This document shows positions 24,620 through 64,000 of a DNA stretch of 64,000 nt, piece by piece; positions within the stretch are counted from its first letter, which is position 1; each line of letters starts with the position of its first letter. The stretch lies in assembly GCA_963844845.1 (NCBI GenBank), contig CAWJPW010000008.1, forward strand, positions 192,257 through 256,256, in the 5' to 3' direction. A model generated the notes under the pieces. It was not told where the DNA came from and searched no databases. It saw only the letters and a list, made by a program, of their open reading frames with translations. Origin of the DNA: an uncultured Acidobacteriota bacterium. GTDB taxonomy: Bacteria; Acidobacteriota; Thermoanaerobaculia; Thermoanaerobaculales; Sulfomarinibacteraceae. The position numbers and the translations under genes were made by a program.

Positions 24620-26079
24620 CCCAGCGAGCCGCCGGAGCGGTGCCACAACAGGGCGGCACCGAGCCCGCCCGCCGCCGCAGCGGCCACCGCCGACCAACTC
24701 CCCGGCAGCTCCCTGCCGGCGACGGCCGCCGCCCCGACCAGCACGAGCGCGGTCGCCACCACGCCCGGAGCCGAAGCGCCAAAACCTCCCAGCCGAACGC
24801 GCCGACGCAGCAGCAGAGCCAGAACCACCAGCCGCCCCACCACCGCCAGGGCGAGCCCGGCGGCGGTTCCCAGGGCCCCAAAGCAGACGGTGAGCAGCGC
24901 CATGGCCGCGCCTCCGGCGACCAGCACGCCGGTCCGCAGCAGGGCCACGGTACGAGCGTGGCCCGCCGCCACCAGGGTGAGGTCCTGGTAGCCGAGGAGA
25001 GACTCGGCAAGAAAGGAGAGCGCCAGCACGCGGAGGACCTCTCCGGCCGGCAGGTAGGGAACGCCTGCCAGGAGCACCACCAGCTGCTGCGGTACCGCCA
25101 GGCACATGCTCAACGGCAGCCACACCAGCGCCAGGGTGAGAAGGCGGGCGTGATGGTAGGCGCCGGCCAACGCACGCTCATCACCACGCCGATGCGCCGC
25201 CGAGGCCATGGGCAGGTAGCCGTGCGCGCCCGCCGCCCCGAGCATCCGCAGCGCCCGGAGCAGGCCCTTGGCGATACCGTAGAAACCGACCTGCGCCGGG
25301 CTCGCCAACAGCCCCACCACGCCCATGTCGAGCCACTGGTCGGTCTGGCCGAGGACCTCGAGGACCGCGAACGGGCGTAGCGAGCCCACCAGACCGCGGT
25401 CGCGCCGCCGCCGCCCGCGCCCGAACCAGCCCCGGCGAACCGCGTGGAGGGCGAAGAGGCCTTCGGCCGCCACGCTGCCGGCGGCGAAGGCCAGAGCGAA
25501 GACCAGCACTGAGCCGCCCGCCAGGGCGGCGAGCGCCACCGCGGCGGCACGCAGCAGCCCACCGCCGCCGTCACGCAGCAGAGCACGGCCGGCAACCTCG
25601 CCAAAACCGCGGCAGGCGCCCAGCACCGCGAGCCCCACCGGCAGAGCCAATGCCACCGGCCACACCCCGAGCAACCCCCATCCCAACAGGCCCCACGCCG
25701 GCGGCAGCAGCCCGGCCGCCTCGACCATGGCGAGCCCGGCCGCGGCCAGCGCCACCGCGGCGCCGCCACCCACTGCCGCGGCCACGAGCAGGGCGGTGCG
25801 GGCACTGGCCTGGGCCTCCTCCTCGGCTCCGGCGGCGCGCAAGGCTGCCACCCGGTGCGCGGTGGCGGGGTTCAGACCGAGGCTGGCGATACCGCCCAGC
25901 GCCGAGGCCAGCGCCACCGCCAGCAGCAGCATGCCGAGCTCGGCCGGCGCCAGTGCGCGGGCCATGATGACCCGGGCGAGGAGGGTCCCCACCAGGGCGG
26001 CAACGCTGCCGGCGACCACCGCCAGGGTGGAGCCGACGAGGTCCTGGCTTCCGCGGGCTCCGTCGCCGGTCTCAGGCAC
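24592..26079 (-). CDS. Polysaccharide flippase (MOP/Wzx-like) membrane protein
   Basis: ORF 24592..26163 trimmed to GTG 26079 (8-nt overlap with the czcD stop). About 12-14 TM, Ala/Leu/Gly-rich. The start is uncertain. Confidence 0.65.
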   Translation of the reverse strand: MPETGDGARGSQDLVGSTLAVVAGSVAALVGTLLARVIMARALAPAELGMLLLAVALASALGGIASLGLNPATAHRVAALRAAGAEEEAQASARTALLVAAAVGGGAAVALAAAGLAMVEAAGLLPPAWGLLGWGLLGVWPVALALPVGLAVLGACRGFGEVAGRALLRDGGGGLLRAAAVALAALAGGSVLVFALAFAAGSVAAEGLFALHAVRRGWFGRGRRRRDRGLVGSLRPFAVLEVLGQTDQWLDMGVVGLLASPAQVGFYGIAKGLLRALRMLGAAGAHGYLPMASAAHRRGDERALAGAYHHARLLTLALVWLPLSMCLAVPQQLVVLLAGVPYLPAGEVLRVLALSFLAESLLGYQDLTLVAAGHARTVALLRTGVLVAGGAAMALLTVCFGALGTAAGLALAVVGRLVVLALLLRRRVRLGGFGASAPGVVATALVLVGAAAVAGRELPGSWSAVAAAAAGGLGAALLWHRSGGSLGQLLRARRG

Positions 26080-26980
26080 GGGGCGCCGAGCCGCACTGGA
26101 TCTGGTGCAGGGCGGTGCGAGGTTCCACCTGGATGGTGGAGTGCCCGATGGCGAACTCCTCATCCAAGGTCGAGCGCAGACGGACGAGGAGGTCGGGGGG
26201 CGCCTCCGGACCGGCTACCACGTGGGCCGAGAGGGCCACGAACCCCGAGGTAATGGTCCACACGTGGAGGTCGTGGACGCCGTCCACCCCGCGCACCCGG
26301 GTGAGCGCTGCCGCCACCTCGTCGAGGTCGATGTGCGAGGGGGTCCCCTCCATGAGCACGTTGACCGCCTCTCTGAGCAAGCCCCACGACGAGAGCAGGA
26401 CCAGGGCCCCGATGAGCACCGAGGCCAGCGGGTCCGCCCACCCCCAGCCGAACGCCCAGATGAGCGCGCCGGCGGCCATCGCCTGCACGCTGCCCAGGGT
26501 GTCAGCGAGAACGTGGAGCCAGACCCCACGCACATTGAGGTTGTCCTCACGCCCGCCGTGCAGGATTGAGAGGCTCACGAGGTTGACCACGAGCCCGCCC
26601 GCGGCCACCGCCAGCATCGGTCCGCCCTGCACCGCGTGGGGGGTGTGGAAGCGCTGCCAGGCCTCCACGAAGATGAACACCGAGATCGCCACCAGGGTGC
26701 CGGCGTTGGCCAGAGCGGCGAGGATCTCGGCACGGTGGTAGCCGAAGGTGCGCCGCGCCGAGTGCGGCCGGCGGGCGAGGCGCACGGCGACCAGCGAGAG
26801 TGCGAGGGCGCCGGCATCCGAGAACATGTGCCCGGCGTCGGCGAGCAGCGCCAGGGAGCCGGTGAGCCAGCCGCCGACGATCTCCGCTGCCATGTAGGTG
26901 AGCGCGAGGGCCAGCGTCGCCCCCAGCCGGCGCGTGTTCCGGGCTCCAGCCTCCTCGTTGGCGTGGGCGTGGCTCGCCAC
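26072..26980 (-). CDS. czcD: Cation diffusion facilitator (Zn/Co/Cd efflux) transporter
   Basis: 302 aa, GTG start with GGAGGAG RBS. His-rich N-terminus MASHAHANEE. Motifs LLADAGHMFSD, FGYHRAEIL, HVLADTLGS. C-terminal cytoplasmic domain with HDLHVW. Confidence 0.9.
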   Translation of the reverse strand: MASHAHANEEAGARNTRRLGATLALALTYMAAEIVGGWLTGSLALLADAGHMFSDAGALALSLVAVRLARRPHSARRTFGYHRAEILAALANAGTLVAISVFIFVEAWQRFHTPHAVQGGPMLAVAAGGLVVNLVSLSILHGGREDNLNVRGVWLHVLADTLGSVQAMAAGALIWAFGWGWADPLASVLIGALVLLSSWGLLREAVNVLMEGTPSHIDLDEVAAALTRVRGVDGVHDLHVWTITSGFVALSAHVVAGPEAPPDLLVRLRSTLDEEFAIGHSTIQVEPRTALHQIQCGSAPRA

Positions 26981-26998: not shown

Positions 26999-27026
26999 AT
27001 TGTGCGCGAAACGTCCCGACGTTCAA
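26999..27026 (-). promoter_or_regulatory. Putative czcD promoter with palindromic operator in the spacer
   Basis: Minus strand reads TTGAAC-GTCGGGACGTTTCGCG-CACAAT. The spacer contains a perfect 6-2-6 inverted repeat, AACGTC GG GACGTT (27009-27022). Confidence 0.4.
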
Positions 27027-27049
27027 AGGACCGGAGGTCCCAAGGCGCC

Positions 27050-27432
27050 GAACCTCGGCCCCGGTCGCGGCGCCGGCCCCGGACACCGCGTCGGCTCCTG
27101 ATGCTCCCAACCCCGGCTCCCGGGCGGCGGCCTTGCCGCCGCCCGTCGGCGCGGCCCCGGGGGCGGCAACGGCACACGCAGGCAGACGGCAGCACGGCCG
27201 TCCCCGGGCCCTGCGCCGAGTCGCCTCCCTGGTCGCTCGGAGCAAGTACTCCGAACGCCAAGGGCCGTGGGAGCCCCCCATGACGTTTCCCGCGAACGCC
27301 CTCCCGGCGAGGAAGCGCTCCCGGGAAAGCGTCATGGACGGCACGCCCGCCGGAGGACACCTTCTCCGGAGGACACCTGCTCCGCGGCGGTATCGGACGC
27401 GGCCGCGGTCCCCGTCCCGGCCCCGGACGCTG
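27050..27432 (+). repeat. Repeat family 1, copy 1 (core about 27098-27390), structured non-coding element
   Basis: Block-wise identity with 33086-33357 (minus) and 63297-63570 (plus). Frame-breaking indels between copies; hairpins conserved with compensatory changes; flanked by GGNCCN-type hexamer runs. Confidence 0.8.
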
Positions 27433-27569
27433 TCAATGGCACCGGCGCGCGGACGTGCCGACCGGGGACCTCCTCCGACCTTGCCAGGAGGAGACCGGGC
27501 GTGCGAGACTACCCGCGCTCGACGATGGCGAGAAGCGACTGCCGCGCAGGCGCATGGGACACATACGGG

Positions 27570-29249
27570 ATGACACGAGTACTCCACGCCGTAGCCGCCA
27601 CGGCCCTCCTGGCCGGGCTACTCTTCATGACCGCCGGCTGCCGACCGGGTGCAGGCACGCAGGTCGGTATCGCCCCACCCGACGACAGCCTCGAGCAGGG
27701 CGATACCCGCCACGAGGCCCTCGCCGATGCGGACGTCGGCAAGTGGATCACGGTTTGCGAGCCGGAGGCCTGCTTCAACGGCTATACGCTCGCGCTCTTC
27801 CGCCGCCGGATCCCCATGCTGGTCGACCTCAACGGTCGGATCGTGCACTCATGGCCTCGAGTCCGCGCGGTGGCGCGTACCCGGCTCAACCCGGACGGAA
27901 CCCTCACGGTCGACGGTGTCGACAACTACCTCAAGGAGTACTCGTGGGGCGGCCGGCTCGACTGGTACTACCGCCCGGCCAACGAGGAGGATCTCCTCCA
28001 CCACGACTTCTTTCGTCTCGCCAACGGCAACTACCTGCTCCTCCTACACGAGGCACCGGGTCGGCTCGACAAGCTGATCGAGGTCGACCGCTCGAAGCGG
28101 GTGGTGTGGTCGTGGCGGATTGCCGACCACCTCGGCGTCGACTTACCGCAGGCCGATCGCTCGTCGCACGACCCGACCCACTGCAACTCGGTGCAGGAGC
28201 TACCGCCCAACCCGCACTTCGCCGCCGGCGACGAGCGCTTCCGCCCCGGCAACATCCTGGTAAGCGCGCGCAACCTCAACTGCATCTTCGTCATCGACCG
28301 TGAGACCGGCAAGGTGGCCTGGCGCTACGAGGACAGCCTCGACTACCAGCACGAGGCCCGCATGATCGCCTCCGGAAACGTGGGAGAAGGCCTCATCGTC
28401 GTCTTCGATAACGGCTACAACAACCGCGAGGCCTACCGGCGATCATCGGTCCTCGCCATCGACCCGGTGGAGCGCCGCGTGGTGTGGCGCTACGCCGCCG
28501 ATGGGTTCTTCTCCTCGGTCGCCGGCACCGCCCAGCCGCTACCCAACGGCAACGCGCTGATCAGCTCGAGCCAGGGCGGGCGCATCTTCGAGATCACGAC
28601 CCAGGGGCACGTCGTGTGGCAGCTCGAGCCGCCCTACCTGCCCATGCGCGCGCGCCGCTACCCGGCGGACTACTGTCCGCAGCTCGAGCGCCTCAAGCCC
28701 CAGCCCCTCCACGCCGTCGCCCGCTCCGACACGCGCCCGTTCATCGACCAGGAGCTGTACGCCTACACCCTCCCCGAGGAGCACCAGACGATCAGGGACT
28801 TCCACGGCAAGACCCGGAGGCTGGTACGGGAGCCCTCGAGCTGCCGCGTGCTGTGGCTGCCCCCCAGGCCGCAGATGGTCCTCGCCTACGGTCTCGACGC
28901 GGGACCGTTGGGGCCCGCCAGCGTGAAGGGTCTCTTCCGCGCCACCCTCGAGCCGCTCGCCGGAGGCAGGCTTCGGGTGCTGCTCGACGACGAGGTCGAC
29001 TCGTCCGATCAGGAGCTCTGGCGGGAGCGCAGCATCCTTCTCGACGGTCTCGGCTACCAGAAGGTCCGGCTCTGCCTGGACGCCCGTTGGGAGGGCGACC
29101 TCGGCGAGCGGCAAGGCGACCGCATCGTACGCTGGCAGAGCCCGTGGGTCGGCAGCCGGGTCAAGCCCAAGCCGACGCCGGAGCCCGAGCTCGACCGCGA
29201 GCGCAAGCTCCGCGCCCAGCAGCTCAAGACCATCGGCTACCTGCAGTAG
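27570..29249 (+). CDS. Arylsulfotransferase (ASST/Arylsulfotran_2)-like beta-propeller lipoprotein
   Basis: ORF 27267..29249 trimmed to ATG 27570 (MTRVLHAVAATALLAGLLFMTAGC lipobox). Motifs: HHDFFRLANGNYLLL, THCNSVQ, NILVSARNLNCIFVIDRETGKVAWRY, VVFDNG. Extra C-terminal region of about 200 aa ending QQLKTIGYLQ. Confidence 0.7.
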   Translation: MTRVLHAVAATALLAGLLFMTAGCRPGAGTQVGIAPPDDSLEQGDTRHEALADADVGKWITVCEPEACFNGYTLALFRRRIPMLVDLNGRIVHSWPRVRAVARTRLNPDGTLTVDGVDNYLKEYSWGGRLDWYYRPANEEDLLHHDFFRLANGNYLLLLHEAPGRLDKLIEVDRSKRVVWSWRIADHLGVDLPQADRSSHDPTHCNSVQELPPNPHFAAGDERFRPGNILVSARNLNCIFVIDRETGKVAWRYEDSLDYQHEARMIASGNVGEGLIVVFDNGYNNREAYRRSSVLAIDPVERRVVWRYAADGFFSSVAGTAQPLPNGNALISSSQGGRIFEITTQGHVVWQLEPPYLPMRARRYPADYCPQLERLKPQPLHAVARSDTRPFIDQELYAYTLPEEHQTIRDFHGKTRRLVREPSSCRVLWLPPRPQMVLAYGLDAGPLGPASVKGLFRATLEPLAGGRLRVLLDDEVDSSDQELWRERSILLDGLGYQKVRLCLDARWEGDLGERQGDRIVRWQSPWVGSRVKPKPTPEPELDRERKLRAQQLKTIGYLQ

Positions 29250-32981: not shown

Positions 32982-33035
32982 CGGCGATCGAGTGTATCGT
33001 TCAAACGTTCGAACGTCTCCCCCGCCCGGGCCGTA

Positions 33036-33450
33036 GGCAGGGTCTGCGTCCGGGACCGGGGCCGGGGCCACGACCGGGGCCGCGGCCGCCCCGGAGCAGG
33101 TGCCCTCCGGCGGACGTGCCGTCCATGACGTTCTGCCAGGAGCGCCTCTTCACACGGAGCGCGTCTGCGGCAAACGTCATGGGGGGCAATCACGGCCCTT
33201 GGCGCCCGGAGAAGTGGCCCCGAACGACCAGGCAGGCGACTCGGCGCAGGGGCCCGGGGGCGGCCGTGCTGCCGTCTGCCTCCTCGTGCCGTTGCCGCCC
33301 CCGGGGCCGCGCCGACGGGCGGCGGAGCCGCCCGGGAGCCGGTGTCGGGAGCATCAGCGACCGGCGCGGTGGCCGGGGCCGCGACCGTGGGCCGCGACCG
33401 CGGCCGGGGCCGGTACCGGGGCCTGGGCCGCGGCCGGGACCGTCAACCGG
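33036..33450 (-). repeat. Repeat family 1, copy 2 (core about 33086-33357, inverted orientation)
   Basis: The reverse complement aligns block-by-block with copies 1 and 3. One hairpin uses three G-U pairs that exist only in this orientation. Confidence 0.8.
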
Positions 33451-33487: not shown

Positions 33488-34621
33488 CTACTCGCCACCC
33501 CGGATCCCGAACTCCTCCAGCACCTTCGCGGTGTGCTCGCCGAGCCGCGGCGCGGGGCGTGACGGCGTCCGGCCCAGCGACGGGAGCCACGGCCCCGGAA
33601 CCTCGACCGTGGCGCCGCCGGGGGCGGTCGCCTCCTCGAGCAGGCCGGCGGCGCGGAAGTAGGGCTCCGCCCGGGCGGCGTCGAGGTCGTTGACCGGGGT
33701 CACCGGCAGACCGCGCTCCGCGGCGGCGCCCAGCCAGTGCTCGGCGGGGGCGCCGGCGAAGGCGGCCGCCACCTCGCGTGCGGCCCGCTCGCCCTCGGGG
33801 CCGAGGTCGAGGCCGGCGCCGGCGAGGTGGCGAAGCCCCAGCAGCTCCACCAGGCCGACCCAGAGCTTGGGCTCCAGGGCGGCCACCGCCACCCGCCCAC
33901 CGTCAGCGCACGCGTAGAGGCGATAGCTGGGGCAGCGGCCGCTCAGCAGGGTCGCGGCGACGCTGTCGCCACCGGCGGCCCGATCCGCCCAGGGCCAGGT
34001 GAGGAACGGCAGCGGCGCCGCGGCCAGGGGCTGCTCCACTACGCTCCCGACGCCGCTGCGGTGGCGCTCGAGCAGCGCGGCCAGCACCGCGCTGGCGGCG
34101 AGGAGGCCCGCGGCGACGTCAGCGAGGAGGATGTGGGGCAGTGCGCCGCCGGGCACGAGGTCGAGGACCCCGGCCATGGCGGTGAAGTTGAGGTCATGGC
34201 CGACCCGCCCGGCCCACCCGGGAGCGCGGCCGAAGCCGGACAGCGAGCACCACACCAGGCCGGGGTTGAGGGCGGCGAGGCGCTCGCGGCCGAGGCCCCA
34301 CCGCGCCATCGTACCGGGGCGGAAGCTCTCCACCAGCACGTCGGCGCCCTTGGCCAGTCGGCGCACCGCCGCCGCTCCCCCGGGCGAGCGCAGATCGAGG
34401 CCCAGCGACTCGGCGCCGCGATAGCAGGCGACGAACCCGGCGCCGGTGTTCCCCACCAGCGGCGGGGTGTGGCGGAAGGGGTCGCCGGCGACCGGGTCCT
34501 CGACCTTGAGAACCCGCGCGCCGAGGTCGAGGAGCTGGCGCGCCAGCACCGCCCCGGGCAGCATGCGCGAGAGGTCGAGGACCACGAGGCCCTGGAGGGG
34601 AGCCGCGTCAGCGCCCGTCAC
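33488..34621 (-). CDS. Family III CoA-transferase (CaiB/BaiF / alpha-methylacyl-CoA racemase-like)
   Basis: 377 aa. LQGLVVLDLSRMLPGAVLARQLLDLGARVLKVE; 4-nt overlap with the upstream ACAD gene. Confidence 0.85.
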   Translation of the reverse strand: MTGADAAPLQGLVVLDLSRMLPGAVLARQLLDLGARVLKVEDPVAGDPFRHTPPLVGNTGAGFVACYRGAESLGLDLRSPGGAAAVRRLAKGADVLVESFRPGTMARWGLGRERLAALNPGLVWCSLSGFGRAPGWAGRVGHDLNFTAMAGVLDLVPGGALPHILLADVAAGLLAASAVLAALLERHRSGVGSVVEQPLAAAPLPFLTWPWADRAAGGDSVAATLLSGRCPSYRLYACADGGRVAVAALEPKLWVGLVELLGLRHLAGAGLDLGPEGERAAREVAAAFAGAPAEHWLGAAAERGLPVTPVNDLDAARAEPYFRAAGLLEEATAPGGATVEVPGPWLPSLGRTPSRPAPRLGEHTAKVLEEFGIRGGE

Positions 34622-38369: not shown

Positions 38370-38387
38370 TCCCCTTCCCGACCCCCA

Positions 38388-38416
38388 GATTCGAAGATTC
38401 AAGGATTCAAAGATGA
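38388..38416 (-). promoter_or_regulatory. AT-rich triple motif (ATCTTTGAATC CTTGAATC TTCGAATC on the minus strand), 18 nt upstream of the fatty-acid CoA ligase start
   Basis: Plus strand GATTCGAAGATTCAAGGATTCAAAGATGA. Complementary to the motif pair at 38559-38597. Confidence 0.5.
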
Positions 38417-38558: not shown

Positions 38559-38597
38559 TAATCTTTGAATCTTTATATCTTACCATCTTTGAATCAC
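38559..38597 (-). promoter_or_regulatory. Two direct GATTCAAAGAT 11-mers flanking a TATAAA box (minus strand)
   Basis: Minus strand reads GTGATTCAAAGAT-GGTAAGATATAAA-GATTCAAAGAT-TAAGG. GC is far below the window average. Confidence 0.5.
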
Positions 38598-38606
38598 GGC
38601 ATTCGG

Positions 38607-45876: not shown

Positions 45877-46287
45877 ATGGCACCTCAGGAACCACAGGTG
45901 GCTGACGAAGCGGCCGAGCGGGCCCGACGCGCCGCCGCGGCGGTCGGGGTACCCGCCGCGCGCCGGCACGTCCTGCTGTGCTGCGACCAGAGCGTACCGA
46001 AGTGCTGCGAGCGGGAGCGCTCACTGGCGTCGTGGTCGTACCTCAAGGCGCGCCTCCGCGAGCTCGGCCTCTCCGAGACGGGCGGCGTCCTGCGCACCAA
46101 GGTCAACTGCCTGCGGGTCTGCACGGACGGCCCCATCGCCGTGGTCTACCCCGAGGGCGCCTGGTACCACTCGTGCACCCCGGTGGTGCTCGAGCGGATC
46201 ATCCAGGAGCACCTGGTCGGCGGCGAGATCGTGGAGGAGTACTGCTTCGCGGTGCGGCCGCTGGAGCCCGCCCATCCCAACCGGTGA
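45877..46287 (+). CDS. Thioredoxin-like [2Fe-2S] ferredoxin-domain protein
   Basis: 136 aa. Cys clusters [14 protein letters not shown] and [21 protein letters not shown]. Confidence 0.7.
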
Positions 46288-46390
46288 TGAGGTTCCCCCT
46301 CCCGCCCATCCACAACCAGCATTCGTGGCCTGGCGACACCCCCACGGTTATTAGGACAGGCTGCAGCAGCGAGTAGGACGAGACCTCGAC

Positions 46391-46575
46391 GATTCCCAAG
46401 TCCGAGCAGCTCGTCGAGCTTCGTCGCGAGACCGCGGAGGTGCCTGTCAGCGTGGTGATCCGAACAAGGCGGACCCAGAGGCGCAGCAGCGCTCCGTCGA
46501 GGACTCCGCCGCCGGGAGGAGCGCCGCGATGGCAGGTGCATCCGCGGGCGCAGGAGATGCTCGGCGAGGTGCCCG
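46391..46575 (+). repeat. Repeat family 2, copy A (about 175-nt structured element)
   Basis: Aligns with 56205-56392, 63594-63735 and 63826-64000. Shared core: CTTCGTCGCGAGACCGCGGAGG...GGTGATyCGAmCAAGG...GCCGCCGGGAGrAGCGCC. Confidence 0.8.
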
Positions 46576-46577
46576 GG

Positions 46578-46844
46578 CTACGCCACCGCCCAGATGAGGC
46601 CGCCGATCACCGCCAGGGGGATGAGCAGGATGAGCCCCACGACCAGGGCGATCGGGCCGAGGACGGCCAGCAGCACTCCGCCCACCACCAGCAGGAACAG
46701 CCCTTTGAGCAGAACCAGGCCGAGCCACAGCGGGAGCAGCGCCAGCTTGAAGATGAGCTTGAGCAGCGTCCCCAGCAGAACCACCACCCCCACCACGAGG
46801 CCGATGGCCATGAGCACCGCGAAGATCCCGAAAAGCTCGAACAT
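46578..46844 (-). CDS. Small hydrophobic membrane protein (about 88 aa, 3 TM)
   Basis: ORF 46578..46892 trimmed to ATG 46844, preceded by GGAGG. MFELFGIFAVLMAIGLVVGVVVLLG... Confidence 0.6.
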   Translation of the reverse strand: MFELFGIFAVLMAIGLVVGVVVLLGTLLKLIFKLALLPLWLGLVLLKGLFLLVVGGVLLAVLGPIALVVGLILLIPLAVIGGLIWAVA

Positions 46845-47091
46845 GCTCGCCTCCAACCGTGTATACGCAGCCACCCCCACCCGAGTTCCCACTCGGGCCT
46901 CCGCTCCTGGTGTCTCAGACGCTCAGCACGGGCCTCCGGGTGGCAGGGTCCGTGCTCTTCTCACCCATGCCATCCCATTTCCAGAGCAATCGGACGCAGC
47001 CGCGGAGAGTCCGCGCGCCGCCACCGCCGCGGCATCGCCCGCCTCGGCACATCGGACGATCTCAATTGCATCCGTTTCCAGCGCCCGCCGC

Positions 47092-54545: not shown

Positions 54546-55201
54546 CGATTCAACAGCTTCACCGCGCCGGCCAGCTCCCGCGCGAGTGGGTGGTCGCCCA
54601 GCCTCTCACCGATGCGCTCTGCAAGGCCGCGGTAGTACCACATCTGCCGCTGTGGGGCGGCGTTGAACCTCCCCCAGACCGCATCCACGCGTTCGCTGGC
54701 GGCGAGGTCTCCCAGCAACGACAGCAGGTTGTGCAGGGCGTCCGCCGCCTTGACGAGAACCGCGTCCACCGGAATGCTGTCGAGGCCCTCCAGCTGCTCG
54801 CGCTTGCGCACCTCCCAGGTGGCACTGGCCTCCTCGTCGCGTCGCTTGTTCTCGGTGACGGCGCGCACAATCTCGAGCACCTCCGGGCCGGCGGCCTCGA
54901 GGATCACCGCCTCACCGTCGGGGGCCGGCACATCCTCGAGGAAGTCGTGCAGGAGGGCCGCCGCGAGCACGGTATCGGGCGCGCCCAGCCGGGCCAGGAT
55001 GCAGGCTGTGCCCATGAGGTGGGTGACGTAGGGCACACAGGTTGCCGGCAGCAGCGGGCCGTCACGCGCGCAGTCGGGCGCCCCCCCCTTGCGGAACTGC
55101 CGGTAGTGCCCACGCGCCGCCAATCTCAGCGCCGACTCCAGCAAGGGGGAGTACAGGCGGTGCTCTGACCCTGCGAACGGATTCTGTTCGGCCTCTTCCA
55201 T
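54524..55201 (-). CDS. HD-domain phosphohydrolase (RelA/SpoT-type (p)ppGpp hydrolase-like)
   Basis: Trimmed to ATG 55201. RLAARGHYRQFRKGG...PYVTHLMGTACILARLG...AALLHDFLEDV. Confidence 0.7.
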   Translation of the reverse strand: MEEAEQNPFAGSEHRLYSPLLESALRLAARGHYRQFRKGGAPDCARDGPLLPATCVPYVTHLMGTACILARLGAPDTVLAAALLHDFLEDVPAPDGEAVILEAAGPEVLEIVRAVTENKRRDEEASATWEVRKREQLEGLDSIPVDAVLVKAADALHNLLSLLGDLAASERVDAVWGRFNAAPQRQMWYYRGLAERIGERLGDHPLARELAGAVKLLNRWVLRKH

Positions 55202-55268
55202 GGTCGACCTTCGAATTGTACCGTGCATCATCGTGTTACGTCACGGTAAGATCGCCACGGGAGGTTCC

Positions 55269-56039
55269 ATGCGCTCGATTCTCGTCGCCTTCACCTGTGC
55301 GTCGCTCCTCGCCACCGGTGCCGTTGCCCAGTCGCTGGGACCGGGCGGGAACATCCCGGTGGTCGCCAACCTACCTGGCGTGGCCGGTACGTTCTGGCGC
55401 TCGGACGTGATCGTGACCAACGCGAGCGACACCAGCACCTCGGTGATGCTCAAGCTGCTTCCGGAGATCCGCGACGGCGCCACGACCTTCACCGCCAAGC
55501 TGATCGGCCCCCTGGACCTCCCCGCCCGCAGCCAGCTCAATCTCCCCAACGTGGTGCAGAGCCGCTTCGGCCTCATCGACGCCAAGGGCTCCCTTCAGAT
55601 CTACACGACCAACGGCGTGCCGGTGGCCCTGGCCTCGCGCACCTACACCTACGACCGCGACAGCGGCGGCAGCTACGGGCAGGAGGTCAGCGGCATCCTC
55701 GCGGCCAAGCAGGCGTGGGTTGCCGGGGTGGAGCACGACGGCCTCTATCGAACCAACATCGGCATCGTATGGCTGTGGGACACCCCGGTGCAGTTCACCG
55801 TGACCGTGTTCAAGGCGGACGGAAGCGAGGCGGGCTCGGGCGTCGTCGCCTTTCCTGAGGCCGGCCTGCAGCAGAAGAGCCTGGAGGCGTTCGGGGTCGG
55901 CACGCTGATCGACGGCTACGTGGTCATCTCCAGCTCGGACCCCGACGCCATCTGGTACGCCTACGGCTCCCGGGTCGACCAGACATCCGGCGACGCGGTC
56001 TACCGCCCCGCCAAGAGCCTCGCCACCGACCTTCCATAG
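55269..56039 (+). CDS. Secreted protein of unknown function
   Basis: Trimmed to ATG 55269 after GGGAGG. Signal peptide MRSILVAFTCASLLATGAVAQ. Motif GVAGTFWRSDVIVTN. Confidence 0.6.
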   Translation: MRSILVAFTCASLLATGAVAQSLGPGGNIPVVANLPGVAGTFWRSDVIVTNASDTSTSVMLKLLPEIRDGATTFTAKLIGPLDLPARSQLNLPNVVQSRFGLIDAKGSLQIYTTNGVPVALASRTYTYDRDSGGSYGQEVSGILAAKQAWVAGVEHDGLYRTNIGIVWLWDTPVQFTVTVFKADGSEAGSGVVAFPEAGLQQKSLEAFGVGTLIDGYVVISSSDPDAIWYAYGSRVDQTSGDAVYRPAKSLATDLP

Positions 56040-56204
56040 CCGCTGCGGCACTGTTCGCGGGCGCACCCGCATCCGACCGGGAACCCGGAAGCCCTCCAAA
56101 GCAGCTGCCGGCAGCTCCCCTTCGTCGCCCGATCTCTCGATGACCCCCATCGCAACGACGACCACCAGCGACTTCTCCAGGCCGAAGCCCGTCCTCCCGT
56201 CACC

Positions 56205-56392
56205 CGTCGAGCCCCCATGTCTCGCCAGTCTTCGTCGCGAGACCGCGGAGGTGCCCATCAGCATGGTGATTCGACCAAGGAGCCGCCGCAGGCGTAGCAG
56301 CGCTACGTCGAGGACGGCGCCGCCGGGAGAAGCGCCGCGATGGCGGGTGCATCCGCGGTCGCAGCAGAAGACTGGCGAGACATGGGGGCGAC
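56205..56392 (+). repeat. Repeat family 2, copy B (complete, closed by a perfect 22-bp stem)
   Basis: CCCCCATGTCTCGCCAGTCTTC (56212-56233) is the exact reverse complement of GAAGACTGGCGAGACATGGGGG (56367-56388). Inner stem: GACCGCGGA/TCCGCGGTC. Confidence 0.85.
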
Positions 56393-56446
56393 TGGTAGAA
56401 TCCCGGGCCGACCGGGTGGTTCTCGCCACCCCGGGAGGTCCTGCCC

Positions 56447-57343
56447 ATGCCCGCGCGATCACTCCTCGACCACATCGGCAACACCCCGCTGCTGCGCCTG
56501 CAGCGAATGGTCCCCGAGAAGAGCGCCGCGGTGCTCCTCAAGATGGAGGCGTGGAATCCATCCGGTTCCCTCAAGGACCGGATCGTCAGGTACATCCTCG
56601 AGGACGCCGAGGCGTCCGGGGCACTCCGCCCGGAGCAGGTCATCACCGATGCCTCGTCGGGGAACACCGGCATCGCGCTGGCCATGGTGGCGGCGGTCAA
56701 GGGCTACCGCACGCGCATCTACATGCCGGAGACCAAGTCCATCGAGCGCCGCAAAATCATGCAGGCATGGGGCACCGAGCTGGTACTCACCACCGGGGCG
56801 GATCAGAACTCGCACATCTGGGCGGTGGAGGAGGCGGTGCGGAGCGATCCGGGGCTCTTCTACCTCAACCAGAACGGCAATTCCGGCAACTGGCGGGCCC
56901 ATTACCACGGCACCGGCGAGGAGCTCATGGCGCAGACCGGGGGGCGGCTCGACTGCTTCATCGCCGGAGTGGGGACCGGTGGCGTCCTCATGGGCGTCGG
57001 CCGACGCGTCCGCGACGCCGGCCTGACCACTCGTGTGGTCGCGGTGGAGCCGAGTGACGCACACTCGCGCATCGAGGGCCTGCTGCACTTCGACGGCACC
57101 TACGTGCCTCCGATCTGGGACGAGTCCCTGGTGGACGAGCGCCTCCCGGTCGCGGACGCCAACGCCATCGCCACCGCCCGGCGCCTGGCCCGCGAGGAGG
57201 GCATCTTCTGCGGCATCTCCACCGGCGCGACCCTCTTCGTAGCTCTCGCTGAAGCCGCCCGCCTGGGCCCGGGGCACACGGTGGTAGCTGTGGCCGGCGA
57301 CCGCGGCGAGCGCTACCTGTCGACCCCACTGGTGGAGGGCTGA
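56447..57343 (+). CDS. Cysteine synthase (O-acetylserine sulfhydrylase family, PLP-dependent)
   Basis: 298 aa, RBS GGGAGG. IGNTPLLRL, PLP-Lys NPSGSLKDR, SSGNTGIALA. Confidence 0.9.
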   Translation: MPARSLLDHIGNTPLLRLQRMVPEKSAAVLLKMEAWNPSGSLKDRIVRYILEDAEASGALRPEQVITDASSGNTGIALAMVAAVKGYRTRIYMPETKSIERRKIMQAWGTELVLTTGADQNSHIWAVEEAVRSDPGLFYLNQNGNSGNWRAHYHGTGEELMAQTGGRLDCFIAGVGTGGVLMGVGRRVRDAGLTTRVVAVEPSDAHSRIEGLLHFDGTYVPPIWDESLVDERLPVADANAIATARRLAREEGIFCGISTGATLFVALAEAARLGPGHTVVAVAGDRGERYLSTPLVEG

Positions 57344-57361: not shown

Positions 57362-57390
57362 TTGACACACTCCGACGGGGCGCTACATAT
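57362..57390 (+). promoter_or_regulatory. Sigma-70-like promoter (TTGACA - 16/17 nt - TACATAT)
   Basis: A consensus -35 hexamer at 57362-57367 and an AT-rich -10 at 57384-57390, both rare in this GC context. Begins 19 nt after the cysteine synthase stop. Confidence 0.45.
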
Positions 57391-57396
57391 TGGTGA

Positions 57397-57511
57397 TGTC
57401 AGCTGATCGCGGGCGTTACACGGACCTGGCAGCCGCGAGAATAACTGCAAAGGTCCGGGCGGGCACACCCGCCATCACGAAATCCCGCATCCGCGGGATT
57501 TCGTATTTTTT
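57397..57511 (+). ncRNA. Candidate small RNA (about 115 nt) or 3'-UTR/leader element ending in an intrinsic terminator
   Basis: Bounded by the promoter above and the terminator at 57479-57511. Rod-like pairing: GTGATG/CATCAC, GCGGG/CCCGC, GGACCT/AGGTCC, GCAG/CTGC. Confidence 0.35.
57479..57511 (+). terminator. Rho-independent terminator
   Basis: GAAATCCCGC ATCC GCGGGATTTC followed by GTATTTTTT. Confidence 0.8.
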
Positions 57512-57675
57512 CTCGAGAAGGAGCAGGGGCTCCGCGGGGCCGGCGACCCGTCACATCGGGAGCTCCCCCAGCGGCACCAGCTCAGCGCCTTCCGAGTCAA
57601 CGCTGGGGGCGTGGATGGGCGGGGGAACCTCGTCACGTCATCACCCGAATGGCTCGTCCCTGGTACTGTGTCCCC

Positions 57676-61038: not shown

Positions 61039-63123
61039 ATGACGATTCCCACCGCGAACCTGCGTAACGTGGCCCTCATCGGCCACTCCGACACCGGCAA
61101 GACCAGCCTGGTGTCGGCGCTTCTCTTCGACAGCGGCACTTTGAACCGCTTCGCCAAGGTCGACGACGGTCACGCCGTCACCGACTTCGACGAGGACGAG
61201 GTGGAGCGCAAGATCACCATCAACACCGCGCTCGCCCACTTCGAGCACCGCGGCGTCAAGGTCAACCTCATCGACACCCCCGGTTACAGCATCTTCACCA
61301 CCGACGCCGTCCAAGGGCTGCGGGTGGCCGACACCGCGCTCATGATGGTGTCGGCGGTGTCCGGCATCGAGGTGCAGACGGAGAAGCTGTGGCGGGTGGC
61401 GGCCGACAACGGCCTGCCCTGCCTCGTCGGCGTCAACCTCATGGACCGCGACCGCGCGTCCTTCCAGCGTACCGTCGATGCGCTGCAGAAGAAGTTTGGG
61501 CGCGAGGTCATCGCGCTGCAGCTGCCCATCGGCGAGGAGAGCAGCTTCACGGGCGTGGTCGATCTCGTGAGCGGCACGGCCACGACCTGGCCCCACGACG
61601 AGAGCGGCACCGCGACGCAGGGTGAGATCCCGGCCGACATGGCCGACGCCGTGTCCGCCGCCCGCGAAGCCCTCATGGAGATGGTGGCCGAGCAGGACGA
61701 GCAGCTCATGGAGGCATACCTCGAGGCCGGCGAGCTGGAGGGCGAGAGCTTCCGCAAGGGCCTTGCGAAGGCCATCCGCAGCCGTGGCCTGTTCCCGGTG
61801 TTCGCCCTGGCGGCGGGCAAGAACATGGCGGTGCAACCCCTCATGGACGCCTTCGTCGACCTGGTGCCCGCCCCCGACTGGCGGCCGGTGCCCGTACGTA
61901 CCCCCGCCGGTGAGGAGCTCGAGCTGGACGTGGCCGACGGCGAGCCGCTGGCGGCCTACGTCTTCAAGACCTTCTCGGACCCCTACGCCGGACGCATCTC
62001 GCTGATGCGCCTGTTCACCGGCGCCCTCACCCCGGATGCCTCGGCCGTCAACCCCGAACGCGATGTCACCGAGCGCTTCGGCGGTCTCTCGGTGATGCAG
62101 GGGAAGGAGCTCCAGCAGGTCGAAGGTCTGGCGGCAGGCGACCTGGCGGCGGTGCCCAAGCTCAAGGAGACGCATACCGGCGACAGCCTCGCCGCGGCCA
62201 ACCGCCTGGTGATCGTCCCCGCCGCGCACATCCCCGAGCCAGCCATCAGCTTCGCCTTGGAGCCCAAGTCCAAGGGCGACGAGGACAAGCTCTTCTCGGC
62301 CCTGGCACGGATCCGGGACGAAGACCCCACCATCTCGGTGGGCCGCGATCCCCAGACCCACGAGCTGCTCATCTCGGGCGCCGGCCAGCTCCACGTGGAG
62401 GTGGTGGTGGGCCGCCTCAAGAAGCGCTACAAGGTCGACGTGGTGCTGCACCAGCCCAAGGTGCCCTACCGCGAGACCCTCACCGCCACCGCGGAGGCCA
62501 CCGCCCGCCACAAGAAGCAGACCGGTGGCCACGGCCAGTTCGCAGAGTGCAAGATCCGCCTCGAGCCGCAGGCACGCGGCGAAGGCTACGAGTTCCTGGA
62601 CAAGATCTTCGGCGGCTCCATCTCGCAAGGCTACCGGCCGGCGGTGGACAAGGGTATCCAGGAGGCCGCGGCGCGTGGCTTCCTCGCCGGGTACCCGGTG
62701 GTGGACTTCAAGGTCGTGCTCCTGGATGGTAAGGAGCACCCGGTGGACTCTTCGGAGATGGCCTTCAAGATCGCCGGCCGCAAGGCCTTCCGCGAGTGCA
62801 TGAAGAACGCTCGTCCGACCATGCTCGAGCCGATCATGCGGGTGGACGTCTATACCCCGGACGAGTTCATGGGCGACGTCATGGGCGACCTCAACTCCCG
62901 CCGCGGCCGCGTGCAGGGAATGGACACGGAGGAGGGAACCACCACCATCCGCTCCCTGGTGCCGCTGGCCGAGGTGCTCACCTACGCTCCCACCCTGCGC
63001 TCCATCACCGGCGGCCGCGCCGACTACCACATGGAAGCCTCGCACTATGACGAGGTTCCCAAGCAGCTCCAGGAGAAGATCATCGCCGCCTCGAAGCTCG
63101 AAGAGGAAGAAGAGGACGAGTAG
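61039..63123 (+). CDS. fusA: Elongation factor G family GTPase
   Basis: 694 aa. G1 GHSDTGKTS, G3 DTPGY, NLMD. Domain IV/V motifs: HKKQTGGHGQF, GRADYHMEASHYDEVP. May be an EF-G paralogue. Confidence 0.85.
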   Translation: MTIPTANLRNVALIGHSDTGKTSLVSALLFDSGTLNRFAKVDDGHAVTDFDEDEVERKITINTALAHFEHRGVKVNLIDTPGYSIFTTDAVQGLRVADTALMMVSAVSGIEVQTEKLWRVAADNGLPCLVGVNLMDRDRASFQRTVDALQKKFGREVIALQLPIGEESSFTGVVDLVSGTATTWPHDESGTATQGEIPADMADAVSAAREALMEMVAEQDEQLMEAYLEAGELEGESFRKGLAKAIRSRGLFPVFALAAGKNMAVQPLMDAFVDLVPAPDWRPVPVRTPAGEELELDVADGEPLAAYVFKTFSDPYAGRISLMRLFTGALTPDASAVNPERDVTERFGGLSVMQGKELQQVEGLAAGDLAAVPKLKETHTGDSLAAANRLVIVPAAHIPEPAISFALEPKSKGDEDKLFSALARIRDEDPTISVGRDPQTHELLISGAGQLHVEVVVGRLKKRYKVDVVLHQPKVPYRETLTATAEATARHKKQTGGHGQFAECKIRLEPQARGEGYEFLDKIFGGSISQGYRPAVDKGIQEAAARGFLAGYPVVDFKVVLLDGKEHPVDSSEMAFKIAGRKAFRECMKNARPTMLEPIMRVDVYTPDEFMGDVMGDLNSRRGRVQGMDTEEGTTTIRSLVPLAEVLTYAPTLRSITGGRADYHMEASHYDEVPKQLQEKIIAASKLEEEEEDE

Positions 63124-63164
63124 CTCCTGCCGCGAGCACGACCGCAGAGCGAAGAGACGCAAGA

Positions 63165-63193
63165 GGGCCCGGCGCAACGCGCCGGGCCCTTTT
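63165..63193 (+). terminator. Rho-independent terminator of the EF-G gene
   Basis: GGGCCCGGCGC AAC GCGCCGGGCCC followed by TTTT. Confidence 0.8.
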
Positions 63194-63247
63194 CAGCTCG
63201 TGCGGCGGACCGTTGAGGAAGGACGGAGCCCGAGGCCGGCTGCCCCT

Positions 63248-63575
63248 CCGGTCCCGGTCCCGGTCACGGTCACGGCCGCGGCCACCGCCCCGGTTGCTGA
63301 TGCTCCCGACACCGGCTCCCGGGCGGCACAGCCGCCGGGCGGCGCGGTCTCGGGGGCGGCAGCGGCACCGGCTGGGAGACGGCAGCGAGGCCGCCCCCGG
63401 GCCCCGGCGCCGAGTCGCCTGCGTCGTCGTTCGAGGGCACTAATCCGAGCGGAGTACCCGCGGATTGCCACCCATGGCATTTCCCGCAGGGGCGCTTCGA
63501 GTGAGAAGACGTTCCCGGGAAGATGCCATGGGTGGCACGTCCCGCCGAGGGAGACCTGCTCCGGGGCGGCCTCGG
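63248..63575 (+). repeat. Repeat family 1, copy 3 (core about 63297-63570)
   Basis: Aligns with copies 1 and 2. 5' flank is a hexamer run: CCGGTCCCGGTCCCGGTCACGGTCACGG. Hairpin CATGGCATTTCCCG/CGGGAA(G)ATGCCATG carries two compensatory pair changes relative to copy 1. Confidence 0.8.
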
Positions 63576-63593
63576 CCTCCTGTCTCCTCCCAT

Positions 63594-63735
63594 CTCACAA
63601 GCCCGCGGGTCTCGGTGATCTTCGTCGCGAGACCGCGGAGGCGCCGGTCAGCGTGGTGATCCGACCAAGGCGGAACCGGAGGCGTAGCCCAGCTACGTCG
63701 CAGGCAGCGCCGCCGGGAGAAGCGCCACAATGGCC
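63594..63735 (+). repeat. Repeat family 2, copy C (3'-truncated or diverged)
   Basis: Shares GGGTCTCGGTGATCTTCGTCGCGAGACCGCGGAGG...GGTGATCCGACCAAGG...GCCGCCGGGAGAAGCGCC, then loses similarity. Confidence 0.7.
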
Positions 63736-63825
63736 TCCTCCGCCCCCGGCATCGCCCTCACAGGAAGGACCGGCGTCCTCCGAGTCCCCGGACCACCTCC
63801 CTCGTCCCCCTCCTCCTCTCCCCCC

Positions 63826-64000
63826 GGTTCCCAAGCCCGCGGGTCTCGCCGGGCTTCGTCGCGAGACCGCAGAGCCGCCTGTCAGGGTGGTGATTCGACC
63901 AAGGCTGCGCCGAGGCGTAGCCCAGCTACGTCGCAGGCGCAGCCGCCGGGAGAAGCGCCGCCCTGACTGGTGGATCTGCGGTCGCAGCAGACGACCGGCG
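63826..64000 (+). repeat. Repeat family 2, copy D (runs off the window end)
   Basis: The inner stem has a compensatory change (GACCGCAGA/TCTGCGGTC versus GACCGCGGA/TCCGCGGTC in copy B). The closing stem is only partly visible before the window ends. Confidence 0.75.

Follow-up and report, generated by a model that had tools for sequence, protein, structure and literature searches.

A composite locus of two structured intergenic repeat families downstream of fusA in an Acidobacteriota-like bacterium

Introduction

The last ~800 bases of the 64-kb stretch of DNA analysed here (contig CAWJPW010000008.1; the whole stretch is called the window) follow the gene fusA, which encodes elongation factor G (EF-G), and consist of one copy of a repeat family designated F1 and then two tandem copies of a second family, F2, all on the + strand. 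What such an assembly of repeats is, and what it might do, is the question that this locus raises. The original prediction had described it as a composite non-coding locus in which two independent families share one orientation; the present analysis upholds that description. The F1/F2 mosaic most likely consists of structured intergenic repeats of the general kind of the ERIC/IRU, BOX and REP-BIME elements. The reading that we favour, with a probability of roughly 45%, is that F1 and F2 are structured intergenic repeat modules peculiar to this lineage, which act in cis as RNA, and the analysis suggests that F2 may be a cis-acting RNA 3′-end module, possibly linked to Rho. As far as sequence comparison goes, F1 and F2 match no family in Rfam 15 or in any collection searched. 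If the favoured reading is right, two previously undescribed structured intergenic repeat families are present in a lineage whose nearest EF-G is 78% identical; to our knowledge, nothing is known of the non-coding repertoire of this lineage.

Composition of the locus

The locus lies behind the intrinsic terminator of fusA (63165-63193, +), which has a GC-rich stem, a 3-nt loop and a UUUU tail. The stem (63165-63175/63179-63189) contains 11 G-C pairs, or 15 pairs as folded with the flanking A-U and G-U pairs, and its minimum free energy (MFE) is -34.6 kcal/mol (z = -4.5). The terminator had been identified correctly before, although its tail is just UUUU and it therefore fails the rule of the scan tool (at least five T). 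The next element is F1 copy 3 (F1-3), a multi-hairpin repeat of ~360-390 nt on the + strand, which was located by nhmmer at 63244-63600 (E = 1e-101) and by alignments. Its 5′ boundary is an array of the hexamers CCGGTC/ACGGTC/GCGGCC (63248-63294, +), detected by Tandem Repeats Finder with a period of 6, 4.7 copies and 95% matches. This array had been listed as a separate microsatellite; it is present, with the limits given here, and belongs to F1. F1-3 also contains helix 11 (63466-63537, +), a ~33 bp hairpin that is the best-supported F1 helix.

A C-rich, G-poor tract (63570-63600, +; (C-G)/(C+G) = 0.36) leads into F2 copy C (63584-63772, +), a degenerate duplicate that was detected by nhmmer (E = 1.5e-50) and scored 129.9 bits with the F2 covariance model, against 180-185 bits for the other three F2 copies. 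Before F2 copy D stands a polypyrimidine C-rich tract (63774-63833, +), recognised by base composition, in which C exceeds G by 28 in 60 nt (against 1.6 on average in the window, standard deviation 6.9); it is the joint most C-rich 60-nt stretch of the window, and (C-G)/(C+G) reaches 0.51 over 63735-63834. Copy D itself (63818-64000, +; nhmmer E = 7e-53; covariance model 181.4 bits) is a long, intact foldback hairpin reaching the edge of the window. As a whole, the 796-nt locus folds far better than its shuffles (z = -6.2), and it is the only place in the window where F1 directly abuts F2.

Most of what had been predicted for this region held. The listed repeats are all present, far beyond chance (three F1 and four F2 copies by nhmmer), and their coordinates and common + orientation agreed with the repeat search and alignments, save for corrected boundaries. 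The independent copies elsewhere were recovered (F1 at 27 kb on the + strand and 33 kb on the - strand, F2 at 46 and 56 kb on the + strand), as were both C-rich or polypyrimidine tracts, and the spacing of ~232 nt between the F2 copies was measured as 233-234 nt from C to D. Copy C, however, is not truncated, since its 3′-terminal GGACCGGCG is kept, although part of the 3′ arm (~30 nt) is scrambled. Copy D does lie at the window edge, where it is nearly complete, its closing stem being short of the last ~10-20 nt.

Coding potential

The G+C content by codon position is flat in 63200-64000 (0.75/0.73/0.72), whereas it is 0.68/0.42/0.92 in the EF-G gene, and the other F1 and F2 copies are equally flat. 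One + strand frame (frame 0) is open across 63200-64000 for 267 codons and runs off the window, without codon bias. Its translation has no homologue among 5.8 billion clustered proteins and no Pfam domain. A peptide motif, LRRETAE.PV.VVIRPR, recurs in F2 copies A-C. The copies differ by indels that break the frame: F2-D has lost 1 nt, and the F1 copies differ by indels of 1 nt. The genes beside the other F1 copies begin downstream of F1: the start of the lipoprotein gene near F1-1, whose product has a signal peptide (MTRVLH...), was placed at ~27570, and the aminotransferase near F1-2 begins with MTPDG... at ~32981. These results show that the locus is non-coding, in agreement with the earlier statement that the last ~750 bp hold no credible coding sequence. 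High-GC regions such as 63200-64000 hold long open frames, which gene callers may mis-annotate as hypothetical proteins.

Structure and constraint of F2

F2 is ~185 nt long. Profiles for nhmmer were built from the copies of each family, and nothing else in the 64 kb reached E < 0.1 apart from self-antisense matches; the copy counts and positional rules given here for F1 and F2 cover the window. The F2 profile found exactly four copies (E = 1e-50 to 4e-59), and a filter-free covariance-model scan returned the same four at 130-185 bits, the next match scoring 21 bits. Copy A (46384-46583, +) is flanked by two convergent genes (45877-46287, + and 46578-46892, -), and its end is 8 nt away from the stop codon of one of them. 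Copy B (56194-56399, +) lies between a + strand gene (55200-56039) and a gene for a pyridoxal phosphate (PLP)-dependent enzyme (56447-57343, +), and has ~110 nt of C-rich sequence upstream. All seven F1 and F2 copies are intergenic, and F2-B, F2-C and F2-D follow + strand genes. As a measure of composition, (C-G)/(C+G) upstream of F2 is 0.40 for B, 0.36 for C, 0.51 for D and 0.19 for A. Overall the F2 copies are 71-79% identical, implying that they are old, though they still fold.

F2 forms a single extended foldback, for which RNAalifold gave 59 pairs with 90% of cells paired. Changes on both sides were found at 11 pairs, compared to 4.4 ± 1.6 in shuffles (none of 500 shuffles reached 11) and 0-3 in controls with slid partners. 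The closing stem covaries, being GTCGAGC/GCTCGGC in A, GCCAGTC/GACTGGC in B and GCCGGGC/GACCGGC in D, and the stems of A and B, as read from the sequence, continue with further covarying pairs for 8-9 positions into the flanks (CCGAGCAG/GUGCCCGG vs CCCCCAUGU/ACAUGGGGG). A local P1 hairpin (GGTCTCG/CGAGACC) was considered as the native pairing and ruled out, as it is the distal closing stem that covaries instead. Invariant in F2 are 21 nt of the 5′ arm (CTTCGTCGCGAGACCGCRGAG) and the opposed internal loops GGTGATYCGAMCAAGG and GCCGCCGGGAGRAGCGCC. The sense RNA is more stable than the antisense by 15.9-24.9 kcal/mol in copies A, B and D, and G-U cells outnumber A-C cells by 26 to 5. Copy D alone has an MFE of -101 kcal/mol (z = -7.7).

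Neutral decay was simulated by placing an equal number of substitutions randomly in the inferred ancestral hairpin (5000 runs); copies A, B and D carry 9-13 substitutions. Copy A kept 95% of its pairs (85% expected under neutrality; 5 of 5000 simulations reached the observed value), copy B 95% (89%; 140 of 5000) and copy D 96.6% (86%; 1 of 5000). Copy C kept 74%, compared to a neutral 73%, a value that 2200 of the 5000 simulations reached. These results suggest that A, B and D are under structural constraint and that C, whose pairing is at the neutral level, is a decaying duplicate.

Copies C and D are the closest pair, with 87% identity over the first 125 nt, compared to 76-80% for other pairs, and they have in common the 5′ flank CAAGCCCGCGGGTCTCG and the C-rich leader. 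Aligned with D, copy C has an intact 5′ arm and a preserved 3′ end, with ~30 nt of scrambled sequence in the 3′ arm. The close similarity and the common flank indicate that a unit of C-rich tract and hairpin was duplicated in tandem, so that, by the evidence of the alignments, C and D are a local duplication and not two insertions.

The F1 family and its hexamer arrays

F1 is ~360-400 nt long, with exactly three copies in the window (nhmmer E = 1e-101 to 2e-108). Copy 1 (27046-27448, +) lies in a divergent region between a cation-efflux gene (26072-26980, -) and a gene for an arylsulfotransferase-like lipoprotein (~27570-29249, +), and copy 2 (33021-33417, -) has a CoA-transferase gene (33488-34621, -) on one side and an aminotransferase-sulfatase operon (~32981-29274, -) on the other. 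F1-1 and F1-2 each precede one of two convergent operons, at 40-120 nt from its first gene and in the same direction as that gene. Each copy is a run of GC-rich hairpins between arrays of CCGGNC-type hexamers. A 5′ array stands in the equivalent position in all three, which places F1-3 at about 63210/63244-63600; copies 1 and 2 also bear an array at the 3′ end (arrays equivalent to that of F1-3 lie at 27056-27095, 33050-33088 and 33371-33442), and their 5′ and 3′ arrays can pair as a closing stem. F1-3 lacks the 3′ array, and its end passes straight into the C-rich leader of F2-C.

In helix 11 the arms are 90% complementary and 94% of cells are paired (z = -7.2), with four compensatory and six one-sided changes in 28 pairs. 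Over F1 as a whole the covariation was modest (8 pairs vs 3.7 ± 1.4 in shuffles), and copy 3 kept 87.6% of its pairs compared to a neutral expectation of 79.6%. Complementarity between CTCCCGGGCGGC of F1 and GCCGCCGGGAG of F2 was judged unremarkable in DNA of 72% GC.

F1-1 and F1-2 form a 400-nt inverted pair around ~5.6 kb, 75-87% complementary by segment, which encloses the genes for the arylsulfotransferase-like lipoprotein, an 836-aa sulfatase and the aminotransferase; such a pair could serve to co-regulate these genes, mark out a unit like a composite transposon or be a substrate for inversion. Palindromic GAACGT/ACGTTC motifs occur beside the F1-flanked operons at 32997-33016 and 27004-27030: the perfect ACGTTCGAACGT just upstream of the aminotransferase start, and GAAACGTC-CC-GACGTTCA upstream of F1-1. 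These motifs look operator-like, yet the 2 occurrences in the window do not exceed what chance would give (1.2 expected).

Hexamer arrays of the same type as the F1 boundaries were also seen in the closest relative, with an EF-G identity of 78% (locus L002, 680-2840; also L003, 60-1000), where degenerate arrays of CGGTCA, GACACG and GACCCT, with 10-14 units each, flank two tandem cassettes. Each cassette encodes a 116-aa four-helix-bundle protein of PF05635 (23S rRNA IVP family), preceded by a conserved stretch of 166 nt. PF05635 is presumably the Avd family of the diversity-generating retroelements. It is also mentioned in a review of these retroelements (PMC10053308). The L002 cassette was considered as an F1 homologue and rejected: neither its Avd-like protein nor its non-coding parts have any real similarity to F1 beyond the hexamers. 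The arrays themselves suggest a lineage-specific class of putative cassette boundaries.

Searches elsewhere and synteny

No Rfam 15 family reached its gathering score anywhere in the window, and a search of 63100-64000 at E ≤ 10 gave nothing meaningful, the matches listed being to microRNA, CRISPR-repeat, snoRNA, lncRNA and sRNA models (best E = 0.37). A blastn comparison with plasmids and phages found nothing that matches the locus. The F2 core pattern had one chance match in GTDB genomes, inside a coding region, and the F2 and F1 core patterns had none in JGI metagenomes; in IMG/VR two patterns gave nothing and an 18-mer gave 10 matches, none of which fitted the F2 covariance model. These pattern scans demand 18-29 exact specified bases and miss diverged copies, so that absence holds at that sensitivity.

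The best match of EF-G (61039-63123) besides its own contig was 78% identical among the same 5.8 billion proteins, and the named matches at ~72% belong to Thermoanaerobaculales/Acidobacteriota, indicating a source lineage that is Acidobacteriota-like and sparsely sampled. The block encoding OmpA, a YfiO/tetratricopeptide repeat (TPR) protein, S20, purC and fusA is conserved in three sets of relatives whose EF-G is 75-78% identical. What follows fusA there is ACBP/PPK2, FHA-GGDEF or a gene of unknown function (525 aa) on the opposite strand, after spacers of 84-465 nt without F1 or F2. In the syntenic loci L002-L008, nhmmer and the covariance model found no F1 or F2 core, and hexamer arrays in L002 and L003 only. 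Since the sequence after fusA differs in each set of relatives, the repeats sit at a synteny breakpoint. The synteny comparison that had been proposed for this region thus places F1 and F2 where none of the three sets has them. The suggestion of an insertion hotspot gains indirect support from the variability of the region downstream of fusA; it fails for F2 copies C and D as two insertions.

Promoters, terminators and mobile-element enzymes

In a scan of the window, none of the F1 and F2 copies was found to contain or follow a sigma-70-like promoter, and none has a U-tract terminator; no U-tract follows the hairpins of F2-A and F2-B. No transposase, integrase, reverse transcriptase, HUH or Y1 transposase domain was found in the window. 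The unannotated genes beside F2-A and F2-B had no match at E ≤ 1, and no target-site duplications (TSDs) flank these two copies.

The same scan detected an apparently unannotated small-RNA gene at 57362-57512 (+), between the PLP-enzyme gene and the SpoU gene. It comprises TTGACA-N18-CATATT, a body of ~110 nt and a canonical terminator, ACGAAATCCCGCATCCGCGGGATTTCGT followed by TTTTTT, and is 86% identical over 101 nt to L002 3136-3233. It has no Rfam match, the best being istR at 19.6 bits over the terminator part alone. This gene has a promoter, a terminator and conservation and the F1 and F2 copies have none of these, which argues against F1 and F2 as independent small-RNA genes; the latter were rejected as such for want of a sigma-70-like promoter and terminator of their own.

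Several further classes were tried and rejected. F2 is not an intrinsic terminator, having no U-tract. A CRISPR array had already been discounted, and we agree: the repeats are 185-nt hairpins 77-87% identical, where CRISPR repeats are nearly identical, 21-48 nt long and set apart by unique spacers of about their own length, only two units of ~234 nt stand in tandem and the other copies lie 7-10 kb away. As F2 is a foldback, its arms are inverted repeats by definition when tested as a miniature inverted-repeat transposable element (MITE), and this class was rejected because no direct duplication was found at F2-A or F2-B and the F1 ends are low-complexity hexamer arrays. REP/REPIN elements were rejected on size (elements of 185 and 400 nt vs imperfect palindromes of 20-40 nt, which have a conserved 5′ tetranucleotide, stand in inverted pairs and go with a RAYT gene) and the lack of a Y1 transposase domain in the window. 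Integron attC sites, imperfect palindromes of 57-141 nt at the 3′ ends of promoterless cassettes beside intI, were rejected since no R″/R′ core motifs (RYYYAAC ... GTTRRRY) were visible at the ends of A and B, the copies are separated by housekeeping operons (S20, purC, fusA) and the window has no integrase. Resemblances to sigma-54 sites, ANTAR elements, k-turns, T-boxes and Y-RNAs were assessed by eye, and none fitted.

Discussion

ERIC, BOX and BIME elements form a functional class and not a homologous family, and F1 and F2 resemble this class in being multi-copy, strictly intergenic and non-coding. The conserved stable structure of the transcribed strand that goes with it was found in F2 and partly in F1. 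ERIC/IRU elements are enterobacterial imperfect palindromes of 127-168 bp. F2 is like them in being dispersed, intergenic and non-coding, of similar size and with moderately diverged copies, in forming one long imperfect hairpin when transcribed and in having no associated transposase. It differs in phylum and has no sequence similarity to them, and it is longer (~185 nt), GC-rich and strongly strand-asymmetric; its internal loops are invariant, and a C-rich tract lies 5′ of it. BOX elements of Streptococcus pneumoniae and REP-BIME elements of Escherichia coli are mosaics of modules that form RNA structures in untranslated regions and affect transcript stability or termination. F1 and F2 likewise combine different modules at one intergenic site, with one module tandemly repeated internally, but the modules are several-fold larger (about 400 and 185 nt), and we know of no RAYT or other cognate enzyme for them. 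With MITEs, PATEs and REPINs they have in common that they are short, non-coding, multi-copy, hairpin-forming, intergenic and found in one lineage, whereas they lack TSDs and a transposase in view, are 20-30% diverged and show compensatory change that keeps the structure. Similarly, the Rfam families Acido-1, Acido-Lenti-1, nadA, OLE, GOLLD, ROOL, HEARO and 6S are structured, non-coding and covarying, as F1 and F2 are, but none of these Acidobacteria or large non-coding RNA (ncRNA) families reaches its gathering score in the window.

Rho-dependent terminators have a C-rich, G-poor unstructured Rho utilisation (rut) region, ~70-80 nt in length, upstream of the termination zone. F2 is like such terminators with protective 3′ stem-loops in its C-rich tract, its stable hairpin without a U-tract, its apparent place at the 3′ ends of transcription units and its high-GC genome; it is unlike them in being a repeated sequence family whose conserved 185-nt hairpin goes far beyond what they need. 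The possible role of F2 as a 3′-end module is suggested by its strand asymmetry, retained pairing, co-directional position, rut-like tract and lack of a promoter or U-tract. Under this reading, duplication or recombination would have spread the repeats, and the need for the transcribed strand to fold would have preserved them. F2 would be co-transcribed with the upstream gene and work in cis: Rho may load on the rut-like tract present in three of the four copies, and the stable hairpin may serve as a pause site or a barrier to exonucleases, so that F2 would define or protect the mRNA 3′ end and insulate the neighbouring gene. F1 is a ~400-nt multi-hairpin module in promoter-proximal intergenic DNA. 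At the locus itself, an F1 copy and an F2 unit of C-rich tract and hairpin presumably came to lie after the fusA terminator, at the synteny breakpoint, and the F2 unit was then duplicated in tandem, with D staying constrained and C decaying. F2 is a clean test case, with old diverged copies, compensatory change on one strand and the neutral duplicate C as an internal control, and a good candidate for studying how high-GC bacteria form or protect mRNA 3′ ends without U-tract terminators.

Several observations weigh against this reading or limit it. The covariation in F1 is mostly limited to helix 11, and the antisense strand folds better in two of the three F1 copies (1 and 2), so that either strand of F1 may be the functional one. 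A hairpin of single-stranded DNA would give a G-T wobble asymmetry identical to that seen in F2. The tests reuse the few sequences from which the structures and the ancestor were obtained, and are supportive rather than definitive. The rule that F2 follows a co-directional gene is drawn from two to three informative loci, among four F2 and three F1 copies. The C-rich tract of F2-A is weak and distant, the Rho/rut idea is drawn from base composition alone, and transcription through the fusA terminator into F1 and F2 is assumed. Finally, the invariant 5′ arm and loops exceed what a generic stabiliser needs, which hints at a specific protein or RNA partner.

The main rival is mobile DNA, which we consider unlikely but the strongest of the other explanations: F1 and F2 would be non-autonomous elements recognised as single-stranded hairpins, either PATE- or REPIN-like or, with unlike ends, IS91- or Helitron-like. 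In the latter form F1 and F2 would be the left and right ends, respectively; F1-3 and F2-C would together make up an element without cargo and every other copy would be a solo end, with the mobilising enzyme encoded elsewhere in the genome. Such an origin would suit dispersed, intergenic, strand-specific hairpins at a synteny breakpoint, the lack of homologues in more distant relatives and the adjoining of F1 and F2 at the fusA locus only; quasi-palindromic hexamer arrays bound F1 and flank other inserted cassettes in the closest relative, and three genes lie between the inverted copies F1-1 and F1-2. Yet the 64 kb contain no transposase or HUH gene, F2-A and F2-B lack TSDs at their flanks, and C and D arose by local duplication. 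The divergence of 20-30% is unlike a recent burst, structure has been kept above the neutral level, and the orientation of F1-2, opposite to that of F1-1 and F1-3 on one stretch of chromosome, agrees better with the direction of the local genes than with that of replication. The possibility that F1 is a long 5′ leader, riboswitch-like or protein-bound, of the arylsulfotransferase-like and aminotransferase-sulfatase operons, with F1-3 and the tandem F2 copies controlling an unseen gene beyond 64000, seems quite improbable to us. It draws on the retained structure of F1 and F2, on the position of F1 upstream of co-directional genes in both assessable copies (one of them in a divergent region, with the strand ambiguous), on the perhaps linked functions of those operons (sulfatase and sulfotransferase-like) and on the PLP-enzyme gene that F2-B precedes. 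It is at odds with F2-A, which has convergent flanks and no co-directional downstream gene, with a -10-like TAGAAT read between F2-B and the PLP-enzyme gene, and with the strand ambiguity of F1; no expression platform (terminator or Shine-Dalgarno-sequestering helix) was identified, no Rfam family or aptamer matched and the relatives' loci fetched hold nothing similar.

That the copies are tandem genes for trans-acting small RNAs, a family comparable to PrrF1/2, OmrA/B and LhrC, with the C-rich tracts as anti-Shine-Dalgarno seeds and the hairpin as a stability module, is in our judgement very unlikely. Strand-specific conserved structure, invariant loops, CCUCC-rich single-stranded tracts 5′ of B, C and D and the tandem arrangement would all be expected of such genes; no copy, however, has a promoter-like site or a U-tract terminator, the C-rich tracts differ in length and sequence among copies, and the 57362-57512 gene has both signals and is 86% conserved in a distant relative from which F2 is absent. 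Still harder to credit is one large modular ncRNA of at least 800 nt (F1 + F2 + F2), in the size class of OLE, GOLLD and ROOL, with solo domains elsewhere. The strong fold of the 796 nt, the single orientation of the modules and the lack of coding potential agree with it, but the modules occur independently elsewhere, module C decays neutrally, no promoter was found and there is no conservation in relatives. The leader, small-RNA and single-RNA explanations each fail at least one test, although they keep some probability for F1. We attach almost no weight to a protein-coding gene in the open frame of 63200-64000, or to a CRISPR or integron-type array. The 267 codons without a stop and the recurring peptide motif would fit a gene, but they are set against flat codon G+C, the frameshift in D, the indels in F1 and the absence of any homologue or Pfam domain, and long hairpins in 234-nt units with 7-10 kb between the other copies make neither CRISPR nor attC.

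Beyond these explanations, it is conceivable, though improbable, that F1 and F2 are undescribed functional structured RNA classes of an Acidobacteriota lineage that is deep and uncultured, or that F1 is a member, lacking an open reading frame, of an array-bounded cassette system. In the former case the 5′ arm and loops of F2 (GGUGAUYCGAMCAAGG opposite GCCGCCGGGAGRAGCGCC) would be a putative site for a specific protein or ligand. In the latter, the system, which carries Avd-like four-helix-bundle genes in the closest relative, would be a new type of array-flanked mobile or recombining cassette.

Other features of the window

The window has a G+C content of ~72%, and its genes are ordinary chromosomal ones, including glycosyltransferases, a beta-oxidation cluster, Ser/Thr kinases and NAD synthase; the block that leads up to the locus encodes SpoU, OmpA, YfiO/TPR, S20, SAICAR synthase (purC) and EF-G. 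Three adjacent large secreted-type proteins are encoded at 760-6436 (-). One, of 795 aa, is cytochrome c554/beta-propeller/di-haem peroxidase-like; another, of 541 aa, has FG-GAP/ASPIC repeats, and its internal coding repeats explain repeat families D4-D7; the third, of 557 aa, contains a hydrazine-synthase-alpha middle domain (PF18582, E = 3e-19) and a PD40 repeat. In addition, two opposed AT-rich octamer arrays, AGATTCAA x3.5 and AATCTTTG x4.5, were observed at 38387-38414 and 38560-38600, in or near the gap between an acyl-CoA synthetase gene and a FadB-like beta-oxidation gene. They are conspicuous against the 72% GC of their surroundings and could be putative binding sites for a regulator.

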